The notes beneath the pieces were generated by a model. The model was not told where the DNA came from. It saw nothing but the letters and a program-made list of their open reading frames with translations, and did no database searches. From sequence record NC_050154.1: a stretch of DNA of 64,000 bases. One strand, written 5' to 3'. Source of the stretch: Escherichia phage D6. Both the position numbers and the translations under genes were made by a program. Shown one piece after another: positions 7,090 through 63,832 of this stretch; position 1 is the stretch's first letter, and every line of letters starts with the position of its first letter.

Positions 7090-7093
7090 AACA

Positions 7094-26987: not shown

Positions 26988-27044
26988 TCAATAGGTTTAG
27001 TAAAATAAAATCTATTAACACTCATGTTGTTATGTGATTTAATT

Positions 27045-27067
27045 TTGGTTTTCTAACACAAATCATT
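27045..27067 (+). promoter_or_regulatory. candidate C1-type operator (TTTCTAACACAAA)
   Basis: Member of a recurring TGTGTTAGAAA family; directly upstream of the ATG at 27074. Confidence 0.5.
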
Positions 27068-29980: not shown

Positions 29981-30937
29981 ATGCGCATTTTTATCGATGA
30001 TGGTTCAACCAATATCAAAATGCTGTGGGAGCACGACGGGGAAACTCGCACTCACATCAGCCCTAACAGCTTTAAGCGCGGATGGTCAGCAACATTTGGT
30101 GCGGGCAAGCCGTTTAACTATGTCATTGACGACGAAAAGTATTCATACGACTTGATATCGCCAGATGTTCTGCCGACGAATAATGTGGAATGGCAATACA
30201 GCCCGCTTAACGTCCTGGCTGTTCACCATGCCCTGCTGACAAGCGGTATTGAGCCGCAGGAAGTAGAAATTGTGGTCACGCTGCCTCTGGCAGAGTTTTA
30301 CGACGACGACGCGCAATACAATCTCGATAACATCGAGCGCAAGAAAGCCAGTCTTATGCGCCCCGTCACGCTGAATAAAGGCAATGTATTCACTATTAAG
30401 AAAGTTACGGTACGCCCGGAGTCTATCCCGGCGGGAATTAGCCTGTGCGACAATCTGAACCCTGCCCACTCTGTTCTTATCGTCGATTTGGGTGGAACTA
30501 CCCTTGATGTTTCAATGGTCGCTGGACAAATGACGGCAGTTTCCCGTGTTTTTGGCGATTCGAATCTTGGTGTATCACTGGTCACCAGGGAAGTAAGGCA
30601 AGCACTTGCAAGGGCCAATACCGAAACGTCAAATTACAATGTTGATCAGCTCATTATTAACCGCCACGATGAAGATTATCTGAACGACAATATCAATGAC
30701 CCATCAGCGATTGGTGATGTGAAAAAGGCCATTGCCGCAAGCATTGACCGTCTGCGTACCCGCGTTCTTGATGTGATTGGCGACTTTAAAGGATATACGC
30801 ATGTCATGGTGATCGGTGGTGGCGCACCGCTGGTGGCAGATGCAATTCGCGAGCAAGTTAATATTCGTGATGACCGTTTCTTCGTGGCGGATGACCCGCA
30901 ACTTGCTCTTGTTCATGGCCTGAAAGCAATCGGTTAA
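29981..30937 (+). CDS. parM: actin-like partition ATPase ParM/StbA
   Basis: MRIFIDDGSTNIK...ISPNSFK...AVHHALLTSG...LIVDLGGTTLDVS; start moved to the RBS-supported ATG. Confidence 0.9.
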   Translation: MRIFIDDGSTNIKMLWEHDGETRTHISPNSFKRGWSATFGAGKPFNYVIDDEKYSYDLISPDVLPTNNVEWQYSPLNVLAVHHALLTSGIEPQEVEIVVTLPLAEFYDDDAQYNLDNIERKKASLMRPVTLNKGNVFTIKKVTVRPESIPAGISLCDNLNPAHSVLIVDLGGTTLDVSMVAGQMTAVSRVFGDSNLGVSLVTREVRQALARANTETSNYNVDQLIINRHDEDYLNDNINDPSAIGDVKKAIAASIDRLRTRVLDVIGDFKGYTHVMVIGGGAPLVADAIREQVNIRDDRFFVADDPQLALVHGLKAIG

Positions 30938-30943
30938 CGAGGT

Positions 30944-31288
30944 ATGTCCATGTCTCAGGAACGTAAGAAAGTGATGATTTATCTTCGCCCAGAGGCTTAT
31001 GCCAATGAAAAGGCGGCGAGCGAGAAGATAAAAAAACATAGCGATATGGCAAGAACTGCATTGTTGGCAGGGCTTGCGCTGGGAGAAGTCGATAGCAGGC
31101 TTCCAGGATTACTGGCTTCCCTGCTGACCGAAGACAATAACCCGGAGCTGATCCGAAAAATGCTGGCATCCTTCTTGGAACTACCAGCTGCGGTTGAGGA
31201 GCGCCCTGCCTCCATTGAGCCAGTGAAGGAGCAATTTGTTGCCAAAAGCGCGTCGGCGCGCAATCTGGCTGACTCTCTACCTGATTGA
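30944..31288 (+). CDS. parR: ParR/StbB-like centromere-binding protein
   Basis: 114 aa immediately after parM; N-terminal RHH-like region, acidic C-terminus. Confidence 0.6.
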   Translation: MSMSQERKKVMIYLRPEAYANEKAASEKIKKHSDMARTALLAGLALGEVDSRLPGLLASLLTEDNNPELIRKMLASFLELPAAVEERPASIEPVKEQFVAKSASARNLADSLPD

Positions 31289-31307
31289 CAGAAGATGTGC
31301 TGGTTTA

Positions 31308-31333
31308 AGGCTGCAAATTGCAGCCTTTTTTAT
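31308..31333 (+). terminator. intrinsic terminator after parR
   Basis: AAGGCTGCAAATTGCAGCCTT followed by TTTTT. Confidence 0.7.
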
Positions 31334-31344
31334 GCCTTAATGGT

Positions 31345-31420
31345 GTCTAATTAGTGTTAATCTGGCACCAGTTAGGTGCTGTTATGGTGCAATTTTGTAT
31401 CTGGTTCCAATTTGGGGCTG
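31345..31420. repeat. GGTGC(A/T) and GGTTCCAATT boxes upstream of the parA-like gene
   Basis: CTGGCACCAGTTAGGTGCTGTTATGGTGCAATT...CTGGTTCCAATTTGG; same motifs recur after the RHH gene. Confidence 0.45.
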
Positions 31421-31575
31421 CTTTCGTGTTAAATAGGATGCAATATAAGGTGTATTTGGTCTGATTGATGTTATACTTTGCCAAACATTCATGACTCCAT
31501 TATAGAGCCTGTCCCGCATCAAAAAGGCTCTTATCTGGAACCGTTTTGATACCAAAATCACACCGAGGAACGGAT

Positions 31576-32217
31576 ATGATTATATTGGTAGTCAGCCAAA
31601 AAGGTGGCTGTGGAAAATCAACCACAAGCGTAAACATCTGTGCGGAGCTTGCCCGCGAAAATAAGGATGTAGTGTTACTAGATGCAGACAAGCAAGGAAC
31701 AGCTGCCCGCTGGGCAGCTGACCGTAACACGGCAGAGGTTTCTCCTGTAATTCATTGTGTCCAGAAGTTTGGTAATATTCGAGAAACACTTCTCGATCTG
31801 GATAAGCGTTATGAATTTGTAGTTGTTGATACAGCCGGGCGCGATAGCAAAGAGATGCGTACAGGCATAACCGCTGCAGATATTGTGTTGGTCCCATTCA
31901 GACCATCTCAACCAGATTTAGACACGCTGGCACACTTTGTTGAAGTGTTTGAAGAGGCTTTGGACCTGATGCCTAATCCTAGCATCAAGGCGTTCGCAGT
32001 CTTAACAATGGCCCCATCCAATCCGGTTGTGAATGAAACCAATGAGGCCAAAGAGTACCTGGCTGAATATCCGCAACTGAAGTTGCTGAAAACCATCATT
32101 CGTGATCGTAAGGTTTACCGCGATTGCATGGCTGAAGGGAAGGGCGTTGTTGAGATGGACAACGGGAAAGCTAAAGGTGAAATCCAGATGTTGGTTAAGG
32201 AGTTATTAAGTGATTAA
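31576..32217 (+). CDS. small Walker-type partition ATPase (ParA/ParF-like, type Ib)
   Basis: deviant Walker A VVSQKGGCGKST; about 213 aa; GAGGAA RBS. Confidence 0.85.
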   Translation: MIILVVSQKGGCGKSTTSVNICAELARENKDVVLLDADKQGTAARWAADRNTAEVSPVIHCVQKFGNIRETLLDLDKRYEFVVVDTAGRDSKEMRTGITAADIVLVPFRPSQPDLDTLAHFVEVFEEALDLMPNPSIKAFAVLTMAPSNPVVNETNEAKEYLAEYPQLKLLKTIIRDRKVYRDCMAEGKGVVEMDNGKAKGEIQMLVKELLSD

Positions 32218-32497
32218 GCCTCGTAAATCGGTAAAAGCCCCCGAAGTAAAAGACCCTGATCTTGAACGCCGAATTGAGGATTTTGCCAGTAAGGCTGATT
32301 TGGTGCCGGGTGAGCAACCAGAAGACAACAAAGTGCTCGATAAGGACGCTCCACGTGATTTTAAATCTATTCGTGTTGGTTTCAATGAATACGAGTACCA
32401 AGTACTTGATGCGTTAAGTAAAAAGCATAATCGCAGCAAATTGAATATGATCCGCCATGCTATCCTCATGTTAGCGGAGTCTGAGGAAGCAAAATAA
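32210..32497 (+). CDS. ParG-like RHH centromere-binding protein
   Basis: 95 aa overlapping the ParA stop; C-terminal RHH-like FKSIRVGFNEYEYQVLDALSKKHNRSKLNMIRHAILMLAE. Confidence 0.55.
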   Translation: MIKPRKSVKAPEVKDPDLERRIEDFASKADLVPGEQPEDNKVLDKDAPRDFKSIRVGFNEYEYQVLDALSKKHNRSKLNMIRHAILMLAESEEAK

Positions 32498-32539
32498 AGT
32501 CTTTCAGGTTGGTTTTAGAACTTAAAAAGTCTTGAACCA

Positions 32540-32620
32540 AAGGTGCACCAATACACCACTAATTTGGTGCACCTTTACATCCTTTTTGGTTCCAATTGTG
32601 TACCATTTGTCATTAATTTA
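32540..32620. repeat. 13-bp perfect inverted repeat AAAGGTGCACCAA plus a GGTTCCAATT box
   Basis: Palindrome with 13-bp spacer; matches the boxes upstream of the parA-like gene. Confidence 0.5.
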
Positions 32621-32765
32621 CTTATGCGCAAAAGTGGGCTTCATGAAAAAGCTCATTATTGAAATAACGATAGAAAGCAATTTCTAATCAACTAGTGGTT
32701 GTCAGCCTATTCGGCTTATAAGATCATACGCTGTTATACGTTGTTTACGCTTTGAGGAATCCACA

Positions 32766-34427
32766 ATGAGTGAGGCAGAAGCCCGCCCGACTAACTTTAT
32801 TCGTCAGATCATCGATGAAGATCTGGCCAGTGGTAAGCACACCACAGTACATACCCGTTTCCCGCCGGAACCGAATGGCTATCTGCATATTGGTCATGCG
32901 AAATCTATCTGCCTGAACTTCGGGATCGCCCAGGACTATAAAGGCCAGTGCAACCTGCGTTTCGACGACACTAACCCGGTAAAAGAAGATATCGAGTACG
33001 TCGAGTCGATTAAAAACGACGTTGAATGGTTAGGTTTTCACTGGTCTGGCAACATCCGTTACTCCTCCGATTATTTTGACAAACTCCATGCCTATGCTGT
33101 TGAACTGATCAACAAAGGCCTGGCGTATGTTGACGAACTGACGCCGGAACAGATCCGCGAATACCGCGGCACCCTGACGCAGCCGGGTAAAAATAGCCCG
33201 TACCGCGATCGCAGCGTTGAAGAGAACCTGGCGCTGTTCGAAAAAATGCGTGCCGGTGGTTTTGAAGAAGGTAAAGCCTGCCTGCGTGCGAAAATCGATA
33301 TGGCTTCGCCGTTTATCGTGATGCGCGACCCGGTGCTGTACCGCATTAAGTTTGCTGAACACCACCAGACTGGCAACAAGTGGTGCATCTACCCGATGTA
33401 CGACTTCACCCACTGCATCAGCGATGCGCTGGAAGGTATTACGCACTCTCTGTGTACGCTTGAGTTCCAGGACAACCGTCGTCTGTATGACTGGGTACTG
33501 GACAACATCACCATTCCTGTTCACCCGCGCCAGTACGAATTCTCGCGCCTGAATCTGGAATACACTGTGATGTCCAAGCGTAAGCTGAACCTGCTGGTGA
33601 CCGACAAGCACGTTGAAGGCTGGGATGACCCGCGTATGCCGACCATTTCCGGTCTGCGTCGTCGTGGTTACACTGCTGCTTCTATTCGTGAGTTCTGCAA
33701 ACGCATCGGCGTGACCAAGCAGGACAACACCATTGAGATGGCGTCGTTGGAATCCTGCATCCGTGAAGATCTCAACGAAAATGCGCCGCGCGCAATGGCG
33801 GTTATCGATCCGGTGAAACTGGTTATCGAAAACTATCAGGGCGAAGGCGAAATGGTCACCATGCCGAACCATCCGAACAAACCGGAAATGGGGAGCCGTC
33901 AGGTGCCGTTTAGCGGTGAGATTTGGATTGATCGCGCCGATTTCCGCGAAGAAGCTAACAAGCAGTACAAACGTCTGGTGCTGGGTAAAGAAGTGCGTCT
34001 GCGTAATGCTTATGTGATTAAGGCAGAACGCGTCGAGAAAGATGCCGAAGGTAATATCACCACCATCTTCTGTACTTATGACGCCGATACCTTAAGCAAA
34101 GATCCGGCAGATGGTCGTAAAGTCAAAGGTGTTATTCACTGGGTGAGCGCGGCACATGCGCAGCCGGTTGAAATCCGTTTGTATGACCGTCTGTTCAGCG
34201 TGCCGAACCCAGGTGCTGCGGATGATTTCCTGTCGGTGATTAACCCGGAATCGCTGGTGATCAAACAGGGCTTTGCTGAACCGTCGCTGAAAGATGCGGT
34301 TGCGGGTAAAGCATTCCAGTTTGAGCGTGAAGGTTACTTCTGCCTCGACAGCCGCCATTCTACGGCGGAAAAACCGGTATTTAACCGCACCGTTGGGCTG
34401 CGTGATACCTGGGCGAAGTTAGGTTAA
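32766..34427 (+). CDS. glnS: glutaminyl-tRNA synthetase, host-like
   Basis: 553 aa with class I HIGH motif and VMSKR (KMSKS) motif; full-length match to E. coli GlnRS as I recall it; the upstream leader ends in TTTACGCTTTGAGGAATCCACA as in the E. coli glnS leader. Confidence 0.97.
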
Positions 34428-34451
34428 TAGGTATTTCGCCACATAAAAAAG

Positions 34452-34477
34452 TAAACGCCGCTACTGCGGCGTTTTTT
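34452..34477 (+). terminator. glnS intrinsic terminator, overlapping the last codons of the convergent methyltransferase gene
   Basis: AACGCCGCTACTGCGGCGTT followed by TTTTTAC. Confidence 0.8.
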
Positions 34478-35477
34478 ACTTCATTATTGCAATTATATCG
34501 TTAGCAACTACACGTGTTGACGCCTTGCAGGACACCGACCGTCTGGCTGCCATATGATGTACTTTAAACCCGTTTCCTTCATATAGTTCACGGATGTTTG
34601 GCGCACCACTATTTGTTATCACTACCTTAGCGCCGCGCTGGTGGGCTTCCACCAATAGAGATACCAGCCGTTTCTGTTCGTCGAAACGGAAGCTATTTCC
34701 TGAATAACTGGTAAACCCTTCTGTATCCGGCAGCGGTTCATACGGCGGATCGCAAAAAATCACATCGCCTTCACCAGCCGCCTCGATGACGCCAGCAAAG
34801 TCACCTGATACAAAGGACGTGTTTTTGAGTACGTCATCAGCCAAAAATGCCTCCATCTCTGCATGTGGGAAGTAGGGCGCTTTGTATTTGCCATACCCCA
34901 CGTTGAACTCGCCATTTTGGTTGTACCGCGTTACGCCATTAAAACAGTGCCGATTAAGGTACAAAAAGGCGGCAGCATGATGTAGCTGGTCATACTTTCC
35001 TCTGTTAAATGCCTCACGCACTTCGAGGTAAGCGTCAGCGTTGTTGTAATTTTGGAAAAAACTATATGACAGCGTGACGAGCGAATGTCCTTCTCGCTGC
35101 AATGTCTGATAGAAGTTAATCAGGTCACCGTTAATATCATTAAGCAGGTTGTGGCGAAATCCTGCATTCGTAAATACGGAACCGCCACCAACGAATGGTT
35201 CTATTAACCGCTTACCGTGTGGTAGATGCTCAAGCACTGTAGGCAATTCTGAGAATTTACCACCTACCCATTTGAATATCGGACGCTCATATTCATCCGG
35301 AGTCCGAATGGTGCGCATATAGCTAATTTCAGCCATCGTATCCTGTTTTTCTATGGCTATGCTTGCTATAGATTTACTCATAGAGCACCCCCTTATTCGC
35401 TTCGAAAACTGCCTTTGCGAATCCATGTGGAGTAGCACTTCGAAAATTAGCCCTGTCAGGCCCTGGTGGCGCGGCAT
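34476..35477 (-). CDS. Dam-family N6-adenine DNA methyltransferase domain protein (C-terminal half of a dmt-like locus)
   Basis: FKWVGGK AdoMet motif and DPPY catalytic motif. Confidence 0.85.
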   Translation of the reverse strand: MPRHQGLTGLIFEVLLHMDSQRQFSKRIRGCSMSKSIASIAIEKQDTMAEISYMRTIRTPDEYERPIFKWVGGKFSELPTVLEHLPHGKRLIEPFVGGGSVFTNAGFRHNLLNDINGDLINFYQTLQREGHSLVTLSYSFFQNYNNADAYLEVREAFNRGKYDQLHHAAAFLYLNRHCFNGVTRYNQNGEFNVGYGKYKAPYFPHAEMEAFLADDVLKNTSFVSGDFAGVIEAAGEGDVIFCDPPYEPLPDTEGFTSYSGNSFRFDEQKRLVSLLVEAHQRGAKVVITNSGAPNIRELYEGNGFKVHHMAARRSVSCKASTRVVANDIIAIMK

Positions 35478-36054
35478 GGATTCTGTTATCTGGCTTGCCT
35501 AATGATTCGTCCATTAGGGCATCAGGCATGACAAAGCCCTGGCCGCTCCAGAGGCATGTTTTTTTGGTGTAGTTATCTTCCTGACAATATGCAGTGAAGA
35601 AGTAAGGGTGAAAGATGTGATCTGGCTTACGCCAGAATGTCGATATTTTGCTGACCGGATTTTCAATCATGTACGGACAACCGATCATCTTTGCAATGTC
35701 ATAACACTGCCAGACAACCTGCATTGCTTTGAACTGGAAAACCGGATCTTTATTAGCCTTGTCCGAAAACCAGCGCGCGCCGGAAACAGCCAGGTCAGTA
35801 CACGGTGGGAACCCGGCCAGAAACACGATGCGCTGCAAATTCTTACGGAGAAAAGCGTATACTTCATCGCTATCGATGATCGCACTAATACGCGTCAGAA
35901 CGGCACCTGATTGCATCCGCTCGTCACTGGTCGATAAGTGCTGTGGATCGACGATAGCGGCATCGACACCGTATTCCAGCCAGGGGGCAACCATTGCCCC
36001 CGTAAAATCACAAAGACTCACAACAAGCGGTCGGTTATTATCGTTCTGCTTCAC
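35374..36054 (-). CDS. C5-cytosine methyltransferase-like domain ORF (N-terminal half of the dmt-like locus); overlaps the Dam ORF in another frame
   Basis: GFPPC (PC motif) and IENP (ENV-like) motifs; start moved to a GTG with GGAGG RBS because the track start would overlap hrdC by ~90 nt. Confidence 0.5.
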
Positions 36055-36943
36055 CGCCAATGGCCTCCACCAGCGCGTTAAACAGTGCAGATAATTCGCC
36101 CGTAAAGAGCACGAAATCAGCATCAAATCGTTGTGCTACATCCTCCCGGTCGATATCGTCGTTCTGGTCATAGAGATCATCACAGAATGTCAGGGCTTTG
36201 ATACTCATATCATCGTTGACTCTGAACGACGCGCGGTCCATCCAGTTAATTGCAACGGTCGTAGCTACTTTCCCCGCCTCAATGTGAGACATAATCTCGT
36301 CGGACTGTAGATCAACTTTGTTGCAGCGAACGGCACCACCATTATCGAGCAGACCCTTTAATGTGGCGTCTTCACCTGCTGTAAATCCGGCAGGGAAGCC
36401 GTTTTTAAACCACTCGGTCATTGTAATTTCCAGCGGTTCGCGTGGTGTGAATGGAATGACAGGCAGGCTGCCGAGCGATTTTCGCAATAAAGCCAGCTGG
36501 TCCTCTGCCTTTTTGGCGCTGCTTGCCTCAACGAATACCAGATGGTTTCTGCGGTCGATCAGGATTTTGGCGAGTGATTTTCTCGTGAAAGCACGAGGAA
36601 GAAGAGAGTGAAGCACTTCATCCTTCAGCGAATCTTTTTCGGTCTTCTTCAGCTTTCTGTCTTGCTCTTCTTCAAGTGTCAGGATTTTTTTCTGTAACTC
36701 TTCTTTGAGCACTTGAGAAGGTAGGATTTTTTCCTCTCGTTTATGCTGTATCAGAAGAAAACCCTGGTATTCATGGGTGAGGTTGTCACCAAGAACGGAG
36801 GTCCAACCAGCTTTAGCCATATCCTGAGAACCGCATGGGGTAAACACAAACTTGCTAAGGGCTGCATTTACTTCTGCAGTATCCCAGCTAACTTCGCGTG
36901 AAAGACGATAGATGAAGATATTTTTGAAAGCGACTGATCTCAT
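36038..36943 (-). CDS. hrdC: RdgC-family recombination-associated protein (P1 hrdC-like)
   Basis: Near-colinear with E. coli RdgC: [91 protein letters not shown]. Confidence 0.9.
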
Positions 36944-36950
36944 GTCTCAC

Positions 36951-36992
36951 CATTTGTGTTAGAAAATACATATTAATTATCTAACACAAATG
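36951..36992. promoter_or_regulatory. palindromic pair of candidate C1-type operators just upstream of hrdC
   Basis: CATTTGTGTTAGAAAATACATATTAATTATCTAACACAAATG. Confidence 0.55.
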
Positions 36993-37002
36993 GGTGCATT
37001 TT

Positions 37003-37656
37003 CTATCCTTTCTTGAAATCGAAGTTGCCAGCAGTGGCCTGAAAGGTTCCTCCTGCCTTGAAAGCTATGTCTCCGTTAGCGGTGACAGCTATATTTTCCC
37101 CATTAACATTGATGTTGTTGGCTGATTTGACGTTAACACTCCCTCCTGCATTCACGATTACATCAGCCGGACCAATGATATATATCTGCCCGGACTCATT
37201 CATGCCAATCCTTGCGCCTGCTGCCGTATTGGCAATTTCATAGCCGCCACCAGCAGTTCGTACTTCAAGAATATTGTTGCGGTGAATAACGAAGTCTTTC
37301 GTTGCTGAGATTTGGGGGCGGGGAGGTGCTCCATCTACTTCCGGCGGCGTCCAGCCGTTGCCTTTGCCAGATGCTTCTGGTGCAACGTTTGGAATTCCTC
37401 CCGGTGCATCCTGAGCGGCACCAACTATCATTGGGCGTCTGGTGTCTATTCGACCGTTAACATCTAAATAAGGAAACTCTACCCAGACCAGGTCACCTTT
37501 GACTGTGGGTACAAAAGCGTTTCCGATGGGTAACAGGTATTCCGCCCAGGGTAGATCGTCATCAGGAACGCCATTCCAGTCAGGTAAAACACGGACTTGA
37601 GCACGCATAAGCCCTGCCGGGTGCACAGTTCCAACAATTTGCGCTCTACGCTTCAT
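37003..37656 (-). CDS. hypothetical protein with beta-helix-like repeats
   Basis: 217 aa; C-terminal VNAGGSVNVKSANNINVNGENIAVTANGDIAFKAGG repeats. Confidence 0.5.
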   Translation of the reverse strand: MKRRAQIVGTVHPAGLMRAQVRVLPDWNGVPDDDLPWAEYLLPIGNAFVPTVKGDLVWVEFPYLDVNGRIDTRRPMIVGAAQDAPGGIPNVAPEASGKGNGWTPPEVDGAPPRPQISATKDFVIHRNNILEVRTAGGGYEIANTAAGARIGMNESGQIYIIGPADVIVNAGGSVNVKSANNINVNGENIAVTANGDIAFKAGGTFQATAGNFDFKKG

Positions 37657-38633
37657 TTGTTCGGCACTCCCAATATCATTCGTGTTGTGTAGCCTACGCG
37701 GTCTTCAAAGTGCGCAACATTTTTTACTATCAGCTTACGGGGCATTGATTCATCAATGCGGTTTTCCTGGTCATAGCGGTATACGATAATCTCTATCACC
37801 ATCCCCGGTTTTATATCAGGATTGCCTGCGACTTCTATATCCATTTTGGGGACGAGAGACAGCTGCATATTGCGAAGAGTTTCCATATCAGAGTCGGATA
37901 TATAACGCACTGGGAGTGAGCTATCGCCATATTCGACGTAGCCATCGGTCATGGAATACCCAACAAAACGATATTGATTCTTTGCTGTTGTCGCATGTTC
38001 CTGTTGGAGTAGGCGCATTTTGGACAAAGTGTATTCTGCTTTAGGGTTATTCCCCTCGTAGGTAAATGATGGCGTTTGCTTCATCAGATCAGCCAGGGTG
38101 TAAAAGTTAAATTCCCCCCGGCATACCCAACATAATGCACCTTTGTCTCGCGCTATCTCCGAAAGCATTTTTGACGGTTTGTCACCGGCATTCAGATGAT
38201 ATGTAACTGCGCGTTTTAGCACGCTGCTGGTAATTTTAAGCTTGCCGGAATATGCCTTGAATATAGCGTCTGGTGTTTTGTTGGTATGTAAATTTGTGCG
38301 CGGGGAGGGGATCTTAAACCTGCGCACGTCTTCACTGACAGCAATAACGGTAACAACATCACCAGCCAGCATTGCAGACGTAACAAAGAAATCTGTTTTA
38401 AAAGTGCCTGCATTACCGTTTGGATCGCCCATTTCAGCCACCAGCGATGCACCGTATTTGGCTTTCCAGTCATCAATTACGGTGCCGGTAGCGTCATGAA
38501 TTTCCAGTTTTAGCAAAGGGGCTTTGAGGCTGGTTTTTTCTACATATACTGCGGTAAAAATCCAGTCTCGTGGCACTTTGTTATCGTTAATGAGCACTGA
38601 CTGTAGAAAATATTGTTGTAACTCCTGGGCCAC
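37653..38633 (-). CDS. hypothetical protein
   Basis: 326-aa ORF coupled to neighbours. Confidence 0.5.
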   Translation of the reverse strand: MAQELQQYFLQSVLINDNKVPRDWIFTAVYVEKTSLKAPLLKLEIHDATGTVIDDWKAKYGASLVAEMGDPNGNAGTFKTDFFVTSAMLAGDVVTVIAVSEDVRRFKIPSPRTNLHTNKTPDAIFKAYSGKLKITSSVLKRAVTYHLNAGDKPSKMLSEIARDKGALCWVCRGEFNFYTLADLMKQTPSFTYEGNNPKAEYTLSKMRLLQQEHATTAKNQYRFVGYSMTDGYVEYGDSSLPVRYISDSDMETLRNMQLSLVPKMDIEVAGNPDIKPGMVIEIIVYRYDQENRIDESMPRKLIVKNVAHFEDRVGYTTRMILGVPNK

Positions 38634-38636
38634 TTA

Positions 38637-39404
38637 TCACCCCATAGATATCGAGGTTTCGGTAATAATACGTTTTGCGTCCAACTCCCATGCTGTGATC
38701 ACGTCTGCAATCACACTTATCGGCGCTTGTGTGGCATAAATACGCTCTTCTCCAATTGGTGCTGAAACATCCGTAAAGCCGACTTCTTTGGCATCCTGTA
38801 TCGAGCAAATCAGCGGGACCGGGACACGAACAAGGTGAGTGGTTGCTTCAAATTGTGTACCTGTCATCAGGCGAAGCCGTGCGCCCAGCGAATTACACAT
38901 CAGACTCATGGTCGCTTTATCAGTTGCCATTAACGTAACGTCATACGTCAGAATAGCCTGGGTGTATTCCAGTTCTGCTAAAGGCATTCCGGTATCCGGT
39001 TCGCAAAAACTGGCTACTTTTTTGCGGTCAATCTGCTGATCATCGTTGATATAATTGATATCCATAGTGCGTGAGATATTGACCAGGGGGAGAGCATCCC
39101 GGTTAATGTTCTGGTTTTCAGGTTTTCTCCCTTGCCCGGCATTTGCGCGACGAACTGCTTTAAGAAACTCGATCGCATTGTCGAAACGGGCCACATAAAC
39201 ACGCTCTGCTGGTGGACGATTCAGGAATGACGCAAAGCGTTTTTCTTCCGGCGCGGGGGCCACCAGTAAGATATCAGAAAAAATGTTGCTGATTAGCGTC
39301 GCAAACGCGTTATCCACGTTTTCAAAGCCCGTGGTCTGGAATTTTCCTGTGCGTGAGGTTTGCCATTCACCTGTTCGCGCCAGGAGGGTTTTATTTGAAG
39401 TCAT
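38637..39404 (-). CDS. hypothetical protein
   Basis: 255-aa ORF. Confidence 0.5.
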   Translation of the reverse strand: MTSNKTLLARTGEWQTSRTGKFQTTGFENVDNAFATLISNIFSDILLVAPAPEEKRFASFLNRPPAERVYVARFDNAIEFLKAVRRANAGQGRKPENQNINRDALPLVNISRTMDINYINDDQQIDRKKVASFCEPDTGMPLAELEYTQAILTYDVTLMATDKATMSLMCNSLGARLRLMTGTQFEATTHLVRVPVPLICSIQDAKEVGFTDVSAPIGEERIYATQAPISVIADVITAWELDAKRIITETSISMG

Positions 39405-40204
39405 TCGATCACTCCGTTTTGAGTCGTATCAAAATTCCTGGCAGGTATGCAGTAGTAAAGCGAACCAACATGCTGTGTGCCGTAGCTAAAAATACGGTGC
39501 ACGTACCACCAGCGGCGCGCTACGCCGTTTACCATCTCTTCATTCCATTCAAGAATTGAGCCGACGGGGACGTTATTTGCTGCAATACGCAGAATCAGAA
39601 CATCATCGGTTAAGCCATCCTGCTCACCGTCTGCGTCAATCGCATGGAAAGAGTCACGCCCGTCAGGGTTATCCAGCACATAAACGATTTCAGGTTCCTG
39701 GTAAGTCAGTTCGCGTTGGTTGTTATCCAGTTCAGTGAATGACTCTTCTCCTGTTTCGTCGCTGACTACCCCATATGTGCCAACATCTGGTCGATATAAG
39801 AGAGCCTGAAACGCGTCTGGGCTGGATTCAATAATCAGCATCCAGTCTGCGCGGATTTGGTCGTTAAAGGCTTTATGCCCGTTATAGCGTGCTTTTAGCT
39901 GTGGAGTTGATTCTCTGCCAGCCAGGGAAGGTGGAAGTATGGCTATATCTGATTCGCCAGCATCCGGAGTAAGGCCACCGTTGCTATCAGCAAAATTATC
40001 ATGGCTATCAGCTTTGGCGGCGGGTTGCTCTTCCAGAATGCTGAATGAATCCGAACCGGTATTGCCATGTTCCGGCGCGCCTCCTGCATTCACTTCAATC
40101 GGCGCTGGCGTTTCTCTCTGCGTGCTGTCATGTTCTGACTCCTTACTTGCCAGGTTTGCATCGTCAGCAAACCATTCGTCAAAACGGCCCATAAGCATCC
40201 TCAA
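39401..40204 (-). CDS. hypothetical acidic protein
   Basis: 267-aa ORF; an AAATCACAA-type box lies ~40 bp upstream (40242..40257). Confidence 0.5.
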   Translation of the reverse strand: MRMLMGRFDEWFADDANLASKESEHDSTQRETPAPIEVNAGGAPEHGNTGSDSFSILEEQPAAKADSHDNFADSNGGLTPDAGESDIAILPPSLAGRESTPQLKARYNGHKAFNDQIRADWMLIIESSPDAFQALLYRPDVGTYGVVSDETGEESFTELDNNQRELTYQEPEIVYVLDNPDGRDSFHAIDADGEQDGLTDDVLILRIAANNVPVGSILEWNEEMVNGVARRWWYVHRIFSYGTQHVGSLYYCIPARNFDTTQNGVIE

Positions 40205-40354
40205 AGGTCGATCTGTCAGGTATCGAAAGGAAGATTTTCGGGAGATTGTGATTTTGGATGAAGGAGGGGGAATTCATAAAATGCACTTGCGCACAGTGCA
40301 ACGGTGCGCTATAGTTATGGCATTCGGTAATCATCACGGAGGATCAAATGACTA

Positions 40355-40657
40355 ATGACCAAAAAAATTAACATAAAGGATTTCAGGGATGCGTGGCTTG
40401 ATGATTTTTTTGAATTTTCAACACCACATAGAAAGATACCTCCTGATATTCATATGACATTGTCACGGAAGTTGGACATTATCAATGCCGCAACTACCTG
40501 TAAGGATTTAAGATCACCACCAGGTAATCGGTATGAGGAACTGTCAGGGAAGCTAAATGGCTATTCATCAGTAAGGGTGAATAAGCAATATAGGTTAATT
40601 TTTAAGTGGGTTAACGGAAAGGCCGAGGACTTGTATCTCGACCCTCACAAATACTAA
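40355..40657 (+). CDS. higB: HigB-type toxin (RelE/ParE superfamily, plasmid killer)
   Basis: 100 aa, C-terminal YRLIFKWVNGKAEDLYLDPHKY; toxin-first order with an HTH partner. Confidence 0.75.
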   Translation: MTKKINIKDFRDAWLDDFFEFSTPHRKIPPDIHMTLSRKLDIINAATTCKDLRSPPGNRYEELSGKLNGYSSVRVNKQYRLIFKWVNGKAEDLYLDPHKY

Positions 40658-40727
40658 AACAGATACCCGGTTACGGACCGGGTTCTGACCAGAGTCCACT
40701 TAATACGCACGCTAGTAAGGGCAAAAA

Positions 40728-41066
40728 ATGAAACAGGCAACCAGAAAACCGACGACCGTAGGTGATATCCTGCTGTACGAATACCTGGAGCCGTTAGAGC
40801 TGAAGATCAACGAGTTAGCAGAAATACTTCATGTTCATCGTAACACCGTAAGTGCTCTTGTTAATAATAATCGTAAGCTAACGATGGATATGGCATATCG
40901 CCTGGCAAAAGCATTCGATACTTCTGTAGATTTTTGGATTAATCTTCAGACCGCAGTAGATCTGTGGGAAGTCGAAAATGATATGCGCGTTCAGGAAGAG
41001 TTAAGTCGTATCAATACTGCTGAAAAATTTATTTCTCAGCGTAACCTGAATAAAAAAGCAGCCTGA
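40728..41066 (+). CDS. higA: HigA antitoxin (XRE HTH)
   Basis: GDILLYEYLEPLELKINELAEILHVHRNTVSALVNNNRKLTMDMAYRLAKAFDTSVDFWINLQ. Confidence 0.8.
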   Translation: MKQATRKPTTVGDILLYEYLEPLELKINELAEILHVHRNTVSALVNNNRKLTMDMAYRLAKAFDTSVDFWINLQTAVDLWEVENDMRVQEELSRINTAEKFISQRNLNKKAA

Positions 41067-41085
41067 TATAGTAAAACACATACAA

Positions 41086-41110
41086 AAAGCCCACTTAGCA
41101 AGTGGGCTTT
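41086..41110 (+). terminator. intrinsic terminator after higA
   Basis: AAAGCCCACTTAGCAAGTGGGCTTT. Confidence 0.7.
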
Positions 41111-41122
41111 CCTTTGTAATTA

Positions 41123-41482
41123 ATGAACATTAAACCTATCCGTACAGAACAAGATTATGAGGCCGCACTGCGTGCGGTCGAACCGATGTTCGATAACGAA
41201 CCGGAAATGAATACTCCGGAAGGTGATTTCTTTGAGGTTATGAGTCTTCTCATTGAGGAGTACGAGAAGAAACATTACCCAATTGAGCCACCATCACCTA
41301 TTGAGGCCATTAAATTCCGTATGGAACAGCAAGGGCTGACCGTGAAGGATCTGGAACCGGCGATTGGTAAGTCAAATCGTGTTTACGAAGTGCTAAATGG
41401 GACACGAAATTTGACGTTACCTATGATTCGCCGTTTACATTCCCAGTTTGGCATTCCTCTTGAAAGCTTGGTTGGTATTTGA
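41123..41482 (+). CDS. second HigA-like antitoxin-type HTH protein, no adjacent toxin
   Basis: 119 aa; C-terminal HTH IGKSNRVYEVLNGTRNLTLPMIRRLHSQFGIPLESL resembling E. coli HigA-type antitoxins. Confidence 0.65.
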   Translation: MNIKPIRTEQDYEAALRAVEPMFDNEPEMNTPEGDFFEVMSLLIEEYEKKHYPIEPPSPIEAIKFRMEQQGLTVKDLEPAIGKSNRVYEVLNGTRNLTLPMIRRLHSQFGIPLESLVGI

Positions 41483-41544
41483 GTTTGGCGGTCTGGATGA
41501 CCGCTATTTTCATAAAATAGATATTAGAAATCACGGTAGTTTAT

Positions 41545-42273
41545 ATGAATACAGATTCATCAACAGAAAAATTGACTGAAAATGATCTAATCAAAGTATC
41601 TTTTGGAGATGCCATAAAAGACAAGCTTTTTAATAAAGTGTTTGCATATATATTAATTTCTTTTCTAATTATTAATTGGAAAGATATACTAATATTGATG
41701 AAGTCAAAGGATGATATCCTATATACTTTATCTGTAACATTTGTTGGAGGTAAGATTCCTCTAGTTTATGAAGGCGTTTTGTCTCCTTGGCTTTATCATT
41801 TTTGCTTGCCATTTATTTTTGGAATTATTGCATCAATTGCAGCTCCGATTGTCACTCTTTGCGTATCAAAGCTAACAAGTAAAATATATACAGAGATAAG
41901 GTATTTGGATGCCGACATGGATCAAAATAAAAGAAAGGCGTTGCAAATAAAAGAGACTGAAATAATAAAAAGTATTAATGATACACAATTCAACAAAAGA
42001 ATTATGGATGAAAATAAAAATGAACTTGAGAGATTGCTTAGGCAGCAAAAAGAGATTATGGCGGCAATAAAGTTATTATATGATGATGTTGGAGTTATCA
42101 TTGAGCTTTTTAAAAGTAGAGGGGTTGGTATTGACTCCCCAGAAAAGTTATATGATTTTGTAATGGCAATAAAGAAGACTTCGCTTTATAATGGCGATCA
42201 TGATTTTAATAAATTGGTTGCTGATATTTCAAATTTATTTGATAAAACGGAAATTGATTTTTCAAAAAGATGA
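41545..42273 (+). CDS. AT-rich hypothetical membrane protein (2 TM segments plus coiled-coil C-terminus)
   Basis: 242 aa, visibly lower GC than flanks; 62 bp after the orphan HigA-like gene. Confidence 0.65.
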   Translation: MNTDSSTEKLTENDLIKVSFGDAIKDKLFNKVFAYILISFLIINWKDILILMKSKDDILYTLSVTFVGGKIPLVYEGVLSPWLYHFCLPFIFGIIASIAAPIVTLCVSKLTSKIYTEIRYLDADMDQNKRKALQIKETEIIKSINDTQFNKRIMDENKNELERLLRQQKEIMAAIKLLYDDVGVIIELFKSRGVGIDSPEKLYDFVMAIKKTSLYNGDHDFNKLVADISNLFDKTEIDFSKR

Positions 42274-42274
42274 A

Positions 42275-42297
42275 AGCCTAGCCTAGGCAGCTAGGCT
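42275..42297. terminator. hairpin between convergent genes
   Basis: AGCCTAGC...GCTAGGCT palindrome. Confidence 0.5.
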
Positions 42298-42306
42298 ATG
42301 TGTAGT

Positions 42307-43500
42307 TTATGCTTTTTTTACATACTCCATGAACATTTTTTCAGCTTGTGCTGGTGGTGTTCCAGCCATGACAAGCGCATCAATGAACGCCTGCTTCTTC
42401 AGTGCGAACTGATCGGCAAGGCGTTGCTGAAGCTCCTTGTTTTTCTGTTTCTCACGTTGCAAGGCCGCTTCTTTTGCTGCCGCCCGTTTTTTCTGTGCAT
42501 CTGACAACTTTCTGGCCTTGGTCAATTGGTCACGTAGTTTGTCGATCTTGCCGTTGTCCTTTGCCAGTTTTGTACTTAAAGCTGCCTGGCGCTTCTGATA
42601 GAGCCTCCATTCGCGTTTGGCGGCTTCAACGTTCGTTTTACTGCTACGATTGCGATTAAACTCCTTCTCGTCTTCTTTTGAGAAGTGTTTGGTTGTACGG
42701 CGGCGATCGTCACCAAATGCAATTTGCGTTGCAGCCTTTTGTAGCGCACGAGCAATACTCATTTGCCAACTGGCGGACTGTAACCGCGTCATTGAGTGGA
42801 TCACGTGTTTACAGGCGACGCCTTGCAGCTTCGGGTTGCGAACTTTTGGATAGGCGTATTCTTTTGGCGGTGCCAGGGCAAAGTTACCCGCAGTGGCGAT
42901 GTAACGATACCAGTATTGATGACGACCACAGTCACAATCGAAAGACACTCGCCCGGCGCACAGTGATTTAGTGATTTTGAGAGCTGATTTATCGTCTTCT
43001 GCGATGTCATCAACCATCTGATCCCATTCTTCAAAGCGTATCCGGACGATATGGTGCTGGTGGACGGATATATCCGATGCTTCTACGCGGATATTAATCA
43101 CATTGTGGCGAAGAGATACGGGTGTAGCTCTTTTGATACCAGATCCGTCATCCACGGCGTTATTTGCACGCTTAATATCGATTGCCTGGCTGGATGCCAC
43201 CAGCTGGGCGTATGTGATGCCAGCCGTCTTGCTGTCATATTTTTCGCGCGTTTTACTCCGTAGCTTTTCGAAACCTTTCAGGTCGTCTCGCGTGAAGAAC
43301 GTGCCGCCTTTTTTCTTCCCTAACTTGAGAATATCTTCGGCGGATTTGTTCCTCAGTCTACTTGGCGTCAGCGTCCGGTGAGCTTGTCGGCGCTTACGGG
43401 TTTGTTCTTTCCTGATAAGCTCGAATAAACGCGTGAAGTCCTTAGAGGACAGGCCGTCAGTGATATAGCGCCCGTCCTGGTTTTTCAGGAAATCAGGCAT
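42307..43500 (-). CDS. hypothetical protein with SWIM-type zinc finger and Lys/Arg-rich coiled coil
   Basis: 397 aa; CDCGRHQ...GVACKHV (CxC...CxH). Confidence 0.55.
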   Translation of the reverse strand: MPDFLKNQDGRYITDGLSSKDFTRLFELIRKEQTRKRRQAHRTLTPSRLRNKSAEDILKLGKKKGGTFFTRDDLKGFEKLRSKTREKYDSKTAGITYAQLVASSQAIDIKRANNAVDDGSGIKRATPVSLRHNVINIRVEASDISVHQHHIVRIRFEEWDQMVDDIAEDDKSALKITKSLCAGRVSFDCDCGRHQYWYRYIATAGNFALAPPKEYAYPKVRNPKLQGVACKHVIHSMTRLQSASWQMSIARALQKAATQIAFGDDRRRTTKHFSKEDEKEFNRNRSSKTNVEAAKREWRLYQKRQAALSTKLAKDNGKIDKLRDQLTKARKLSDAQKKRAAAKEAALQREKQKNKELQQRLADQFALKKQAFIDALVMAGTPPAQAEKMFMEYVKKA

Positions 43501-43822
43501 TTTCTATCTCCGGTTCCGCGCTCGCGTAATCACGGATCTTGTTCCTCAGCCATGCCACATCAGGAAGAGTTAACGTGGTCCCGGCGGGCATTTCTTCCAT
43601 TTCTGACTCATGGCCCACCAGCACCCGGAATACCCAGCGCAAATCTGCATTGCCATACGCCCTGTAGGCTGCAAGGTCTGAACGATATACTTCATCAATC
43701 TTTATCGTGTACTGGAAATTATCAGAGTGATACTCCGATACCCGCTTAATCATTTCCTGGTGAAACAGCGCACGAAAAATATCGTCTTCAATGTACCTAT
43801 CGTCGAGTCTGCTATAGCCCAT
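43493..43822 (-). CDS. hypothetical protein
   Basis: 109-aa ORF coupled to the downstream gene. Confidence 0.5.
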   Translation of the reverse strand: MGYSRLDDRYIEDDIFRALFHQEMIKRVSEYHSDNFQYTIKIDEVYRSDLAAYRAYGNADLRWVFRVLVGHESEMEEMPAGTTLTLPDVAWLRNKIRDYASAEPEIENA

Positions 43823-44015
43823 AACAAAGCCTCTCAGTCATAACCTGGGGGAAACTGTATGCAGGGTGTGAAATGCGAGAAACAGACAGGCCACCAGTTC
43901 AGGGGGATGTGGTTCATAAATCCCCTCACTGGTGACAAGTGACTTTCATTAATCTTTATGCGTGGGCCAGCTTCATTTGCTGGCATTAGATTAAAAATTA
44001 AACGGAGTGAATGAC

Positions 44016-44150
44016 ATGGATGTTATCTTCGAATTATTAATGCTAATTGATCTGTTTATGAACGCTTCATTGACCACGCAAATACTGGCGTCAATATTTT
44101 TGTTACTCTTCTACCTGGTATTGAGGGAGTTAACAAAGCTACTAATGTGA
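44016..44150 (+). CDS. small hydrophobic peptide (44 aa)
   Basis: Own translation MDVIFELLMLIDLFMNASLTTQILASIFLLLFYLVLRELTKLLM with GGAG RBS; not in ORF track. Confidence 0.35.
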   Translation: MDVIFELLMLIDLFMNASLTTQILASIFLLLFYLVLRELTKLLM

Positions 44151-44804: not shown

Positions 44805-44822
44805 TGTCCTTCCTCCACGGAT

Positions 44823-44856
44823 GACGGATACAAAAAAAGGCCGCACATGGCGGCCT
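44823..44856 (-). terminator. intrinsic-terminator-like hairpin in the 5' leader of the 44804 gene
   Basis: Minus strand: AGGCCGCCATGTGCGGCCT followed by TTTTTTT, between the late box and the RBS. Confidence 0.5.
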
Positions 44857-48019: not shown

Positions 48020-48079
48020 ATTGGCAGCCTCCTTTTGCTAATTTAAGGAGCTACCGCGTGAGGTCTCAATCTCAATGGC

Positions 48080-48228: not shown

Positions 48229-48817
48229 TGTCGCCTTTTGCATTATCCGGGGTCTCAATCCCGGCACCCGTTTTTCTAAGGTGCCGTAGAAATATACCCC
48301 ACGATAATGCCAGGGCGCAACAGTCAGTATTTTATGCTTTGGCGGATTTCTTCCGGGCTTGCTTGCAGGCGTAGGCCATTGCTTTAGCTTTCACTTCATC
48401 CAGCTTCCCGGTGATCACTTCTTTTCCGAGAGTGACAAACCAGTCATAGCAACCGCCAGTGATGTTCTGGATTTGAAAGTTGAGGTAGCGAACTGTCATT
48501 TTGACCCCCCCAGCGCGAGTAAAGAATGCAGATTATCGCGTGAGTGGCGGACAACGAGTGATGGGAAAAGACAGTAGCTGTTCATAGTGTAGTGACTCCT
48601 TGCTTTCGGAGCCGCCATCGACTGTTCCACGGTCTGGTGGCGGCGCAATAAAGGCTGGAACACCGTGAGTCAACGGGGGCTTTTCAGCCACCTATATTGC
48701 ACCGCCATAGGTATAGCGGCGGCAATAATACGAAAAACTAAACAGTTTGTCTCAAAAAGTTGACCGGTGTGCCAATCGGTAGTGAATGTACATCGGAGAA
48801 ATTTACAATTCAACTTA

Positions 48818-48839
48818 AAATGTTAGAAAACTAATTTAT
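48818..48839. promoter_or_regulatory. candidate C1-type operator upstream of the immI-like unit
   Basis: AATGTTAGAAAACTAATTTAT, 17/19 identical to the motif at 62787; overlaps the ref-like stop. Confidence 0.5.
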
Positions 48840-49409
48840 CAATTCAATCGCCATCTGATACAACGTCATTTCATCGGCATTGTGCCGCATGAAATCTGCT
48901 TTTCCGCCTATTTTTCCGTCAGCATGAACAGGGACCAGCCAGGGATATTGTTCTCGGACCTCGGCTGGCGCTGCGTACTGGTGGTGCCATTTACACAAAG
49001 GGAGGACATATTTATGCGCGTTCTCTGCCGTTCTCCCGAAGATATGGTGCAGGGATACCACTGGGCTATGTTGCCCGTGAATATGGCAGGCAATGCAGGG
49101 GAGAGCACCGATAGCGGTCTGTATCCGGCGTTCATCGGCTGTGAGTGATCTGCCTTTCAGGCCGCGTGACGTGCGTGTTTTTTTGGACGGAGCGGATACA
49201 GCTTTATCTTTTCTCCGCTGTTCATATTGCTTTGCTTTTTCAATTTTCTTTTGCCGATATTCAGGCGATGCGGCTTTTTCTCTCGCTCGCTGCTGCTGGC
49301 GTTGAGCTTGTTGAAGGCACTTTGCCCTTTGTTCCTCTCGCCAGGCTGGGTCAGCCAATTTTTGCATGGCTTTTTGTCTCTGTTTCTCCCAATAGCTCTG
49401 TTTCTGCAT
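48831..49409 (-). CDS. HNH-type endonuclease with Lys/Arg/Gln-rich N-terminal extension (P1 Ref-like)
   Basis: 192 aa; CIACHIHGQHSPVVSLHHIFGRT...LPLCKWHH; operator-like motif ~60 bp upstream. Confidence 0.55.
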   Translation of the reverse strand: MQKQSYWEKQRQKAMQKLADPAWREEQRAKCLQQAQRQQQRAREKAASPEYRQKKIEKAKQYEQRRKDKAVSAPSKKTRTSRGLKGRSLTADERRIQTAIGALPCIACHIHGQHSPVVSLHHIFGRTAENAHKYVLPLCKWHHQYAAPAEVREQYPWLVPVHADGKIGGKADFMRHNADEMTLYQMAIELIN

Positions 49410-49472
49410 GATGGCTGCCTCTTACTTTTCAGCGATTTTTCTATGATTGATCAAAATGATTAGATATTCAAA

Positions 49473-49493
49473 ATTGATTTTCTAACACAAAAC
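49473..49493. promoter_or_regulatory. candidate C1-type operator in a divergent promoter region
   Basis: ATTGATTTTCTAACACAAAAC. Confidence 0.55.
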
Positions 49494-49681
49494 ATTAATA
49501 TCATTCCTGATAACTGTTTGGAGGACATGATGCTTATAGCTTTAAGTGCGATCCACCAGCCATCTGTGAATGAGATTGGCCTGTTCTATGTGTTGTTTTT
49601 CGGGGCGTTGGCGCTACTTGAGCTTGGTATTGAGCTTTTCGCAGTGCTTATGTTTTGCGTCACGATTTTGGGGAAATTTTG

Positions 49682-53523: not shown

Positions 53524-53550
53524 TCAAATCATTTACGCACTCAAAATTAC

Positions 53551-53580
53551 GTTAGAACATTGATTTTAGTTTTCTAACAT
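53551..53580. promoter_or_regulatory. inverted pair of candidate C1-type operator half-sites
   Basis: GTTAGAACATTGATTTTAGTTTTCTAACAT, ~40 bp upstream of the 53622 ATG. Confidence 0.5.
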
Positions 53581-53621
53581 ATTATTTTACCGCTCGGAAC
53601 AAAACAGAGTCGGTATACATT

Positions 53622-62742: not shown

Positions 62743-62786
62743 AATAGGCGAGGGTACTTTACAGCAAAGATATCAATCTAAAAAGA

Positions 62787-62807
62787 TGTGTTAGAAATTT
62801 AATTTAT
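62787..62807. promoter_or_regulatory. candidate C1-type operator, overlapping the recombinase stop
   Basis: TGTGTTAGAAATTTAATTTAT. Confidence 0.5.
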
Positions 62808-63832
62808 GAATCCATCAAGCGGCTATTAGCCCCCACAGACACACCGCCACGGCGCAGATACCGCATAAGTGTTTCCGGTTTCTTCCAGGTTCCTTCCTGC
62901 ATAATCTCCACCATAGACACCTGCTTTTCAGCCATATCGATAGCGGCCCCGACACGAGCACTATGCCCGGTCCACGTCCGGTATCTCCCTTTGTTTGGCG
63001 TGGCATCCCTTTTATTCAGCAACACCCAGGCGTCGCTGAATATTTTCTCCATTGCAGGTGCAGTAAGGGGCGTTGTCGTAATCCTGGCCTTATTGCTACG
63101 GTGTATCGGCGGGAACAGCACCGCGTCAGGATGTTCACGAAGCCCGGAAACATCCAGCCAGTCATTCAGCACAGCAGTAGTGCGACGGGAAAGCACCTTA
63201 TCAAGCCCGGCGGCGGTCGTTATTGTCTTCGTGTGTGAAATATGTAGCGTGACAGTGTCACCTGTTTGGTCCAGATCTCCTACACGAATACGCGAGATTT
63301 CCGACATACGCATCAGCGTATTGTATGCAACAAAGAGAAAAGCCCGGTTGCGCAGGTCCACCAGCCGTTCTGACCTGGACAACAGGACGTCGAGCAGTTT
63401 CAGGTCGTCCCATCGCAGCGGTATAGCCTGGCCTGTTCGTTCGCCTTTTTCCGTTGCCGCTTCGCGCCGGATACGCCGCATAGCCAGAGAAACACTTTTA
63501 TCATCCGAAAGTGGCGGAAGGCCACAATGAGAAAGCAGCATGTTAAGCATGGCGTAGTGCTTATCAATGGTGGTCGAAGCCAGATCGGCATCATGCAACT
63601 GAAGAAAATACTCGCGGGCCATTTCTGGTGAGATCGGAAACCAGGCAAGCTGGCGAGCGTGACACCAGCGCGCCCAGGAATGAAACACCAACCGGAGGTC
63701 GCGCAGAGTATTCGGCGCATAAGCACCCTGATCATTCATGAACCGCATAAAGTTTTCTGCGGCTTCCTGGTACTCTTTGCCAATGTTGCGCAGAAAACCA
63801 CCGGAACTGCCAGAGATAATTAATTCACTCAT
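62804..63832 (-). CDS. Cre-family tyrosine recombinase (Dre-like)
   Basis: 342 aa colinear with P1 Cre at reduced identity: HSWARWCHARQLAWFP, SVSLAMRRIRRE, GHSARVGAAIDMA; rox-like half-site follows. Confidence 0.9.
   Translation of the reverse strand: MSELIISGSSGGFLRNIGKEYQEAAENFMRFMNDQGAYAPNTLRDLRLVFHSWARWCHARQLAWFPISPEMAREYFLQLHDADLASTTIDKHYAMLNMLLSHCGLPPLSDDKSVSLAMRRIRREAATEKGERTGQAIPLRWDDLKLLDVLLSRSERLVDLRNRAFLFVAYNTLMRMSEISRIRVGDLDQTGDTVTLHISHTKTITTAAGLDKVLSRRTTAVLNDWLDVSGLREHPDAVLFPPIHRSNKARITTTPLTAPAMEKIFSDAWVLLNKRDATPNKGRYRTWTGHSARVGAAIDMAEKQVSMVEIMQEGTWKKPETLMRYLRRGGVSVGANSRLMDS

Follow-up and report, generated by a model that had tools for sequence, protein, structure and literature searches.

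What is the inverted repeat at positions 36951-36992 in the 64,000 nucleotides of phage D6 DNA analysed here (the window), and does it belong to a wider regulatory network? A first-pass annotation of the same DNA had listed closely related copies at six promoter-proximal places and proposed them as candidate operators of a repressor resembling P1 C1. The analysis described below indicates that the repeated TGTTAGAAAA motif very probably constitutes the operator set of a master repressor of the C1 type, encoded by a phage D6-like plasmid-prophage, a reading in which the binding itself is deduced from sequence, gene position and analogy with P1.

A recurring motif in single and paired form

All six places reported in the first-pass annotation carry the motif, and its members stand clearly apart from the rest of the sequence when scored with a 24-nt weight matrix that was refined on these sites. 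In the window and 9.8 kb of adjoining sequence, 12 half-sites scored at least 25.7 bits (range of members, 25.7-33.7 bits), nine of them at the six reported places and three just past the right end of the window, while the runner-up reached only 10.1 bits; the score distribution is thus bimodal, with a 15-bit gap between the members and the best non-member. The consensus, wwTrTGTTAGAAAAyTAAwwT, is asymmetric and roughly 20 bp long. Exact copies of TTGTGTTAGAAAA are found at 27049-27061(-), 36954-36966(+) and 49478-49490(-), a copy with one mismatch at 36977-36989(-), the palindromic partner of the copy at 36954, and copies with two mismatches at 53570-53582(-) and 62786-62798(+), while the copy at 48818 reads AAAATGTTAGAAAA. 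The sites and the genes next to them are given in Table 1.

Table 1. Predicted operator sites and associated genes in the window, with further sites in the complete relative NZ_CP122910.1
Feature	Position	Strand	Score or match	Remarks
Proximal half of predicted paired operator before rdgC/hrdC	36950..36973	+	27.2 bits	CCATTTGTGTTAGAAAATACATAT
Distal half of predicted paired operator before rdgC/hrdC	36970..36993	-	29.9 bits	CCATTTGTGTTAGATAATTAATAT
Single site	27042..27065	-	30.3 bits	Intergenic
Single site over ref stop codon	48814..48837	+	28.8 bits	
Predicted paired operator, ref (-) / DUF4406 operon (+)	49451..49494		30.9 bits (strong half)	Strong half 49471-49494(-)
Weak half of ref/DUF4406 pair	49451-49474	+	5.3 bits	Background 99th percentile -15.6
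Predicted paired operator	53543..53586		25.7 and 33.4 bits	Halves 53543-53566(+) and 53563-53586(-)
Single site	62782..62805	+	30.6 bits	Upstream of orf2-orf3-dut operon
rdgC/hrdC homologue	36038..36943	-	PF04381 RdgC, E 4.7e-103	51.7% identical to P1 HrdC
ref-like gene (RecA-dependent nuclease)	48831..49409	-	PF16786, E 4.6e-35	Predicted operator at each end
dre, Dre tyrosine recombinase	62804..63832	-		AY753669 annotates dre, rox and c1
Site in NZ_CP122910.1	27 nt before c1 ATG			
Site in NZ_CP122910.1	80-107 nt before lpa			lpa, late-gene activator
Site in NZ_CP122910.1	37 nt before PmgS-like gene			Another site directly past the stop of this gene
Site in NZ_CP122910.1	Before first c4-icd-ant unit			About 105 nt upstream of C4 target element a1b1
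Site in NZ_CP122910.1	22242			Between two unnamed genes
Sites in NZ_CP122910.1	Remaining loci			Equal to the six window loci

Could such AT-rich sequences simply recur by chance? The one result that would favour this comes from the 13-mer of the first-pass annotation, which with up to two mismatches gave 8 matches against 2.67 expected, a number reached in 1 of 100 shuffles; this enrichment is only weakly significant, and two of the eight matches (45043 and 45769) fall outside the motif family. As a definition of the family the 13-mer with two mismatches was rejected as too loose, since it admits these two false members, the match at 45043 arising because it falls within the -10 hexamer region of a mat-proximal element that resembles a P1-type late promoter and precedes a mat-like gene. 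The refined word TGTTAGAAA occurs six times in the window against 0.55 expected under a second-order Markov model, is the commonest 9-mer of the non-coding DNA of the window, and has all six copies within the 7.8% of the window that lies outside open reading frames (ORFs) of at least 50 aa. Together with the 15-bit gap and the conservation of the motif at matching sites of divergent elements (see below), these figures already refute a chance origin. The enrichment that the first-pass annotation wished to see in a motif scan is therefore unambiguous for TGTTAGAAA and the weight matrix and marginal for its own 13-mer, and the positional bias outside coding regions, whose absence it had named beforehand as a possible refutation, was found without exception, every strong site being intergenic.

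The sites are either single or arranged as inverted pairs, in which the AT-rich tails face each other in the middle and the GTTAGA heads form the outer ends, with a G-to-G distance of 27 bp in every pair. Four clear inverted pairs are associated with lpa, rdgC, ref/DUF4406 and DUF968, and a possible fifth lies after pmgS at plasmid position 8855 of the complete relative; the partner halves score 31, 33, 6.8, 5.3 and -2.8 bits, whereas the 99th percentile of the background is -15.6. Of the arrangements described in the first-pass annotation, the palindrome (36951-36992) and the inverted pair (53551-53582) are both real and share this 27-bp register, and the window contains a third pair (49451-49494), made of one strong and one weak half.

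At the palindrome, for which rdgC/hrdC is the first gene downstream, the half-site at 36950..36973 ends 8 nt from the rdgC ATG at 36943, and a predicted consensus promoter (TAGAAA-18-GATAAT, 37005-36976(-)) places its GATAAT -10 hexamer inside the distal half-site CCATTTGTGTTAGATAATTAATAT. The site at 27042..27065 occupies a divergent region between a capsid-like gene (25218-26915(-)) and a gene at 27074-27466(+), the G of its GTTAGA (27057) being 17 nt before the 27074 ATG. Upstream of a minus-strand unit composed of a small ORF, an isrK-like RNA, a C4 RNA, icd and ant (Rha) lies the site at 48814..48837; the two RNAs of this unit, a C4 antisense RNA (48074-48161(-), 76 bits) and an isrK-like sRNA (48206-48284(-), 59 bits), both identified with Rfam, are located upstream of the icd-like and Rha/ant genes. 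The pair at 53543..53586 is preceded by a Ppp-like metallophosphatase gene and followed by the DUF968 operon, and the orf2-orf3-dut operon next to the site at 62782..62805 starts at 62742 on the minus strand. As had been proposed, two copies extend over stop codons: the motif tail at 48814..48837 overlaps the ref TAG (48831-48833), and the site at 62782..62805 overlaps the first two bases of the dre TAA (62804-62806).

The symmetry of the 36951-36992 palindrome also raises the question of whether, between the tail gene and rdgC, it forms a hairpin in RNA or DNA that serves in processing, translational control or termination. The RNA indeed folds at -21.5 kcal/mol (z = -5.1) directly before the rdgC Shine-Dalgarno sequence, but this was the only one of the four loci tested to fold strongly, the others being weak or similar to shuffled sequences (z = -2.9, 0.2 and -0.4). 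Moreover, half of the loci are single copies that are unable to pair, no U-tract follows the stem, conservation tracks the sequence of the half-sites and not their pairing, and no compensatory stem changes without preservation of GTTAGA were seen in the relatives. A hairpin can hardly be the explanation of the motif, and we retain the operator reading for this locus.

Two further groups of repeated or promoter-like sequences were recorded in the window. A second enriched non-coding word family, TGTAAAAATTGCCCTCA, was considered and set aside, as it corresponds to the repB iterons and is unrelated to the operator motif. About ten iterons (roughly 19 bp, rGTGTAArATTTGCCCTCAA) flank repB (18649-19437) in the stretches 18530-18670 and 19440-19730, five in tandem upstream and the others downstream in both orientations, an arrangement like that of incC and incA around P1 repA. 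Sequences similar to the -22 region of P1 late promoters are present at 45043-45072(-) and 43925-43955; the first consists of AAATGACTT followed by TTATAAAA before the mat-like gene, as in P1 LPmat, and in the second AAGTGACTT lies within a palindrome at 43937.

The D6-like element and its C1 gene

The window is part of a P1-related, D6-like phage-plasmid of Escherichia coli and Salmonella that carries the Dre recombinase and a rox site. Its P1-related features include a Sit-like tail protein, Ref, RdgC/HrdC, a Ppp-like phosphatase, a tyrosine recombinase, C4 RNA, and repB with iterons. Part of the window is matched by 1706 records of plasmids from E. coli, Salmonella and relatives, the best complete relative being plasmid NZ_CP122910.1 (90,922 bp, 98.7% identity), and in the contig collection 5863 indexed blocks contain the recombinase. 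A megablast search of positions 30000-45000 against the phage collection returned almost no matches, the whole D6 genome apparently being missing from that collection.

The first-pass annotation had stated that the repressor gene is not in the window and should be sought elsewhere in the element, which is correct: in colinear contigs 95-99% identical to the window, c1 starts about 227 bp past position 64000, divergent from dre and about 390 bp away from it. A 345-aa protein with the precomputed domain Phage_P7_repressor_C1 (PF27008) was present in all six places shown among the recombinase matches, and the C1 of the colinear contigs shares 100% identity with D6 C1 (AY753669). The identity extends to rox and Dre of the D6 immC region, and the window belongs to the D6 phage group. 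No operators are annotated in AY753669, and a literature search for the motif string and for D6 operators returned nothing relevant. An earlier description in the literature is possible.

Despite its divergence, the D6 protein is recognizable as a homologue of P1 C1. Pairwise BLASTP gave 21% identity over 240 residues (E 2e-8), and both proteins match phrog_1678 (E 2.8e-170 for D6 C1 and 2.6e-140 for P1 C1); PHROGs and pairwise BLASTP were used because the Pfam set lacked PF27008 and gave no match for C1. No solved structure related to C1 was found. D6-type C1 proteins (345-355 aa, 345 aa in D6; L004 8569-9606(-)) have about 60 additional residues at the C terminus compared with P1 C1 (283 aa), which aligns to the 347-position PHROG profile over positions 1-280 only.

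Other features of the element were noted alongside the repressor gene. The rox site (TAACTTTAAATAAT-TGGC-ATTATTTAAAGTTA) straddles the right end of the window (63983-64000 and beyond; 9816-9850 in contig L004) and contains a near-consensus promoter, TTGGCA-16-TATAAT, directed toward dre. Two contigs of 388 kb (L004) and 823 kb (L006) carry the D6-like element, compared with a replicon of about 90 kb, and in these the element may have inserted or formed a co-integrate, or the contigs may have been misjoined during assembly. At 32766-34427(+) lies a full-length gene for glutamine--tRNA ligase, named glnS in the RefSeq annotation of the relative, and several tRNA genes of the relative lie outside the region of the window. 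Besides, a cin-like serine recombinase gene (4425-4985) stands beside oppositely oriented tail-fibre and tail-fibre-assembly genes, and the whole stretch (4425-7648) resembles the invertible host-range segment of P1.

Predicted operator positions compared with P1 and with divergent relatives

Scanned with the weight matrix, the complete plasmid NZ_CP122910.1 has 12 loci with a total of 14 sites that score more than 20 bits, and every one of the 14 falls within the 12.7% of the plasmid that is non-coding (87.3% is annotated as coding). These sites precede c1, lpa, ref, hrdC-dmt, both c4-icd-ant antirepressor units and pmgS, with further sites before the DUF4406 and DUF968 early operons and the dut operon, and in the window itself the leftmost 27 kb (1-27000), occupied by structural operons, contains no site. 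The orientation of the motif relative to the downstream gene is mixed, and at some sites the first clear gene is a long way off, as at 48822, where the distance is about 320-540 nt. As a separate observation, the complete relative has a second c4 unit with a1b1 targets (L007 20738-20944), giving two immI-like antirepressor units.

The curated P1 record (AF234172) annotates both "monovalent" and "bivalent" C1-controlled operators, and the positions can be compared directly. In P1, Oc1a-e lie before c1, Oref before ref, Omat over the ref stop codon, and Olpa about 70 nt before lpa; OpmgRa/b are found before pmgR-pmgS and downstream of ppp-pmgQ, OpmgT after pmgS-pap, and Odmt (formerly Op68) before uhr-hrdC-dmt (AF234172). 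The D6-type motif is present at every position corresponding to Oc1, Olpa, Oref, Omat, Odmt, OpmgR and OpmgT. The 36951-36992 palindrome is the positional counterpart of Odmt/Op68, because it stands directly before the HrdC homologue, and the label "hrdC-dmt" given to this locus in the first-pass annotation agrees with P1 nomenclature. Both c4-icd-ant copies of the D6-like element also have a motif site upstream, and in P1 c4-icd-ant is controlled by Op51, the operator before c4.

The two systems share homologous repressors (phrog_1678), the gene order pacAB, c1, recombination site and recombinase, and asymmetric, dispersed, intergenic operators that occur as single sites and as inverted pairs with the tails inward; likewise, the ImmC regions of P1 and P7 and the D6-type element share as targets c1, lpa, ref, the site over the ref stop codon, hrdC-dmt, pmgS and c4-icd-ant. 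A dispersed and asymmetric network of the P1 C1 type, as suggested in the first-pass annotation, is thus supported by the adjoining C1 gene, the intergenic location of the sites, their P1-matching positions and their single and paired forms. The recognition sequence, in contrast, is different: D6-type sites have TGTTAGAAAAyTAA, whereas the P1 consensus is the asymmetric 17-bp sequence ATTGCTCTAATAAATTT, with 22 sites (PMC8546580). The window holds no match to ATTGCTCTAATAAATTT within three mismatches, and therefore the sites are not operators of P1 specificity, which upholds the earlier remark that the sequence departs from the P1 consensus. The resemblance of the two consensus sequences, at most 9 of 17 identities and those only at sites starting TTTGTG, is too weak to support descent from a common ancestral sequence. 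The geometry also differs, since P1 Oc1ab consists of two inverted 17-mers whose tails overlap by 6 bp and which span 28 bp (AF234172), while the D6-type pairs span about 38-40 bp, or about 38 bp when measured at aligned positions, and are one helical turn wider. There are about 14 strong half-sites in the complete D6-like relative, compared with 22 in P1.

Comparison of three contigs whose C1 homologues are 89%, 51% and 44% identical provided a view of the motif across divergent elements. The gene order lpa, pacAB, c1, recombinase and dut operon is kept in all three contigs, and in all three GTTAGAAAA is kept before c1, lpa, the dut operon and DUF968 and around the pmgS-like gene, with the 27-bp register retained in the lpa pair. 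In the intergenic alignments, whose mean identity is 49-75%, the motif is the longest or the sole long invariant block, although the tail after GTTAGAAAA differs between lineages. TGTTAGA is invariant at the dut-operon site in an alignment of 49% mean identity, and the strong half of the 53543..53586 pair is invariant in the relative with a 44% identical C1. This pattern of sequence conservation supports a functional role of the motif. Independently of the motif, a GC-rich hairpin (CCCCTCGG...CCCGGGGG) covers the lpa Shine-Dalgarno sequence outside the window (L004 5245-5282); it is kept in relatives with C1 proteins 44-51% identical and may exert translational control over the late activator.

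The same data bear on the identity of the binding protein. As the link between C1 and the motif is deduced, the tail of the motif is AT-rich, and the element encodes several further putative DNA binders, the sites might instead be occupied by another protein of the element or of the host, such as the small DNA-binding protein of the DUF4406 operon, an HTH protein or an AT-preferring nucleoid protein. However, eight site positions match experimentally defined or curated P1 C1 operators, one of them before c1 itself, and another binder would leave this match unexplained; in addition, the invariant GTTAGA head is not simply AT-rich and the motif accompanies C1 homologues even in very divergent elements. 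We consider a binder other than C1 improbable.

A directional promoter element, whether an early promoter for the host RNA polymerase or a target of Lpa, is less probable still. In P1-like phages, Lpa-dependent late promoters combine an inverted repeat at -22 with a -10 hexamer and stand in one orientation ahead of the structural and lysis operons. Every copy of the motif lies ahead of genes, its tail looks like a -10 hexamer (TAAAAT, TAATTT) and TTGTGT like a -35, but the orientation is mixed, which fits a repressor site and not a directional promoter, and there are four clear inverted pairs and a possible fifth. Besides, the motif stands before lpa and c1 and is missing from the 27 kb of structural operons, and the P1 late-promoter -22 element AAGTGACTT (LPmat) is unrelated to it in sequence, a -22-type copy occurring separately before the mat-like gene. 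Networks in which one repressor acts at many asymmetric sites scattered over the genome are also represented by the stoperators of mycobacteriophage L5, recognized by gp71. The L5 stoperators are mostly within transcription units, have one orientation relative to transcription and stop elongation, whereas the D6-type sites are all intergenic, near promoters, of mixed orientation and in some cases paired, and the L5 gp71 repressor is unrelated to D6-type C1. The operators of a C1-type repressor thus remain our preferred reading of the motif.

Predicted regulation and significance

By analogy with P1, one C1 molecule would occupy each half-site in the lysogen, and the bound repressor would block the overlapping sigma-70 promoter or its start site. 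A strict scan of the sites found a consensus sigma-70 promoter over the operator only at rdgC, and therefore promoter overlap at most of the other sites is assumed. Early, recombination, replication-accessory and antirepressor genes would consequently be silent, and with lpa turned off the late genes would all remain off as well. A further site, immediately ahead of the ribosome-binding site of c1 and downstream of a conserved candidate promoter (TTTACT-17-TAAATT), suggests that c1 would be autoregulated. No coi-like ORF was found before c1, and there is no ORF of at least 27 aa on the c1 strand between c1 and rox, while Lxc has been reported as not detected in the D6-like plasmid pYU39_89 (PMC6799933); therefore, the control of D6-type elements may differ in detail from that of P1. 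Operators with a specificity of their own, serving a C1 homologue, are to be expected in a phage family already known, and no new principle is involved.

The comparison with relatives also allows some more speculative suggestions. It is possible, and we put it forward tentatively, that D6-type C1 forms a separate specificity class, marked by a GTTAGAAAA head that is invariant even at 44% C1 identity and by strict 27-bp pairs. As these pairs are exactly one helical turn wider than the bivalent operator of P1, the C-terminal extension of about 60 residues could provide a cooperative, dimer-like contact across the pair that is absent in P1 C1. Alternatively, one immunity specificity could be common to a broad and varied set of phage-plasmids in E. 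coli and Salmonella.

Phage-plasmids of the D6 type abound in E. coli and Salmonella, and some of them carry resistance genes. The operator sequence and the predicted C1 regulon offer a direct handle on the lysogeny switch of these elements, and the repressor and its operators would represent tight, orthogonal parts beside Dre/rox, which is already in use in genome engineering. Furthermore, the operator sequence gives a means of predicting which of these elements are mutually immune and which are heteroimmune with P1, D6-type and P1-type elements being expected to be heteroimmune at the operator level because their recognition sequences differ.
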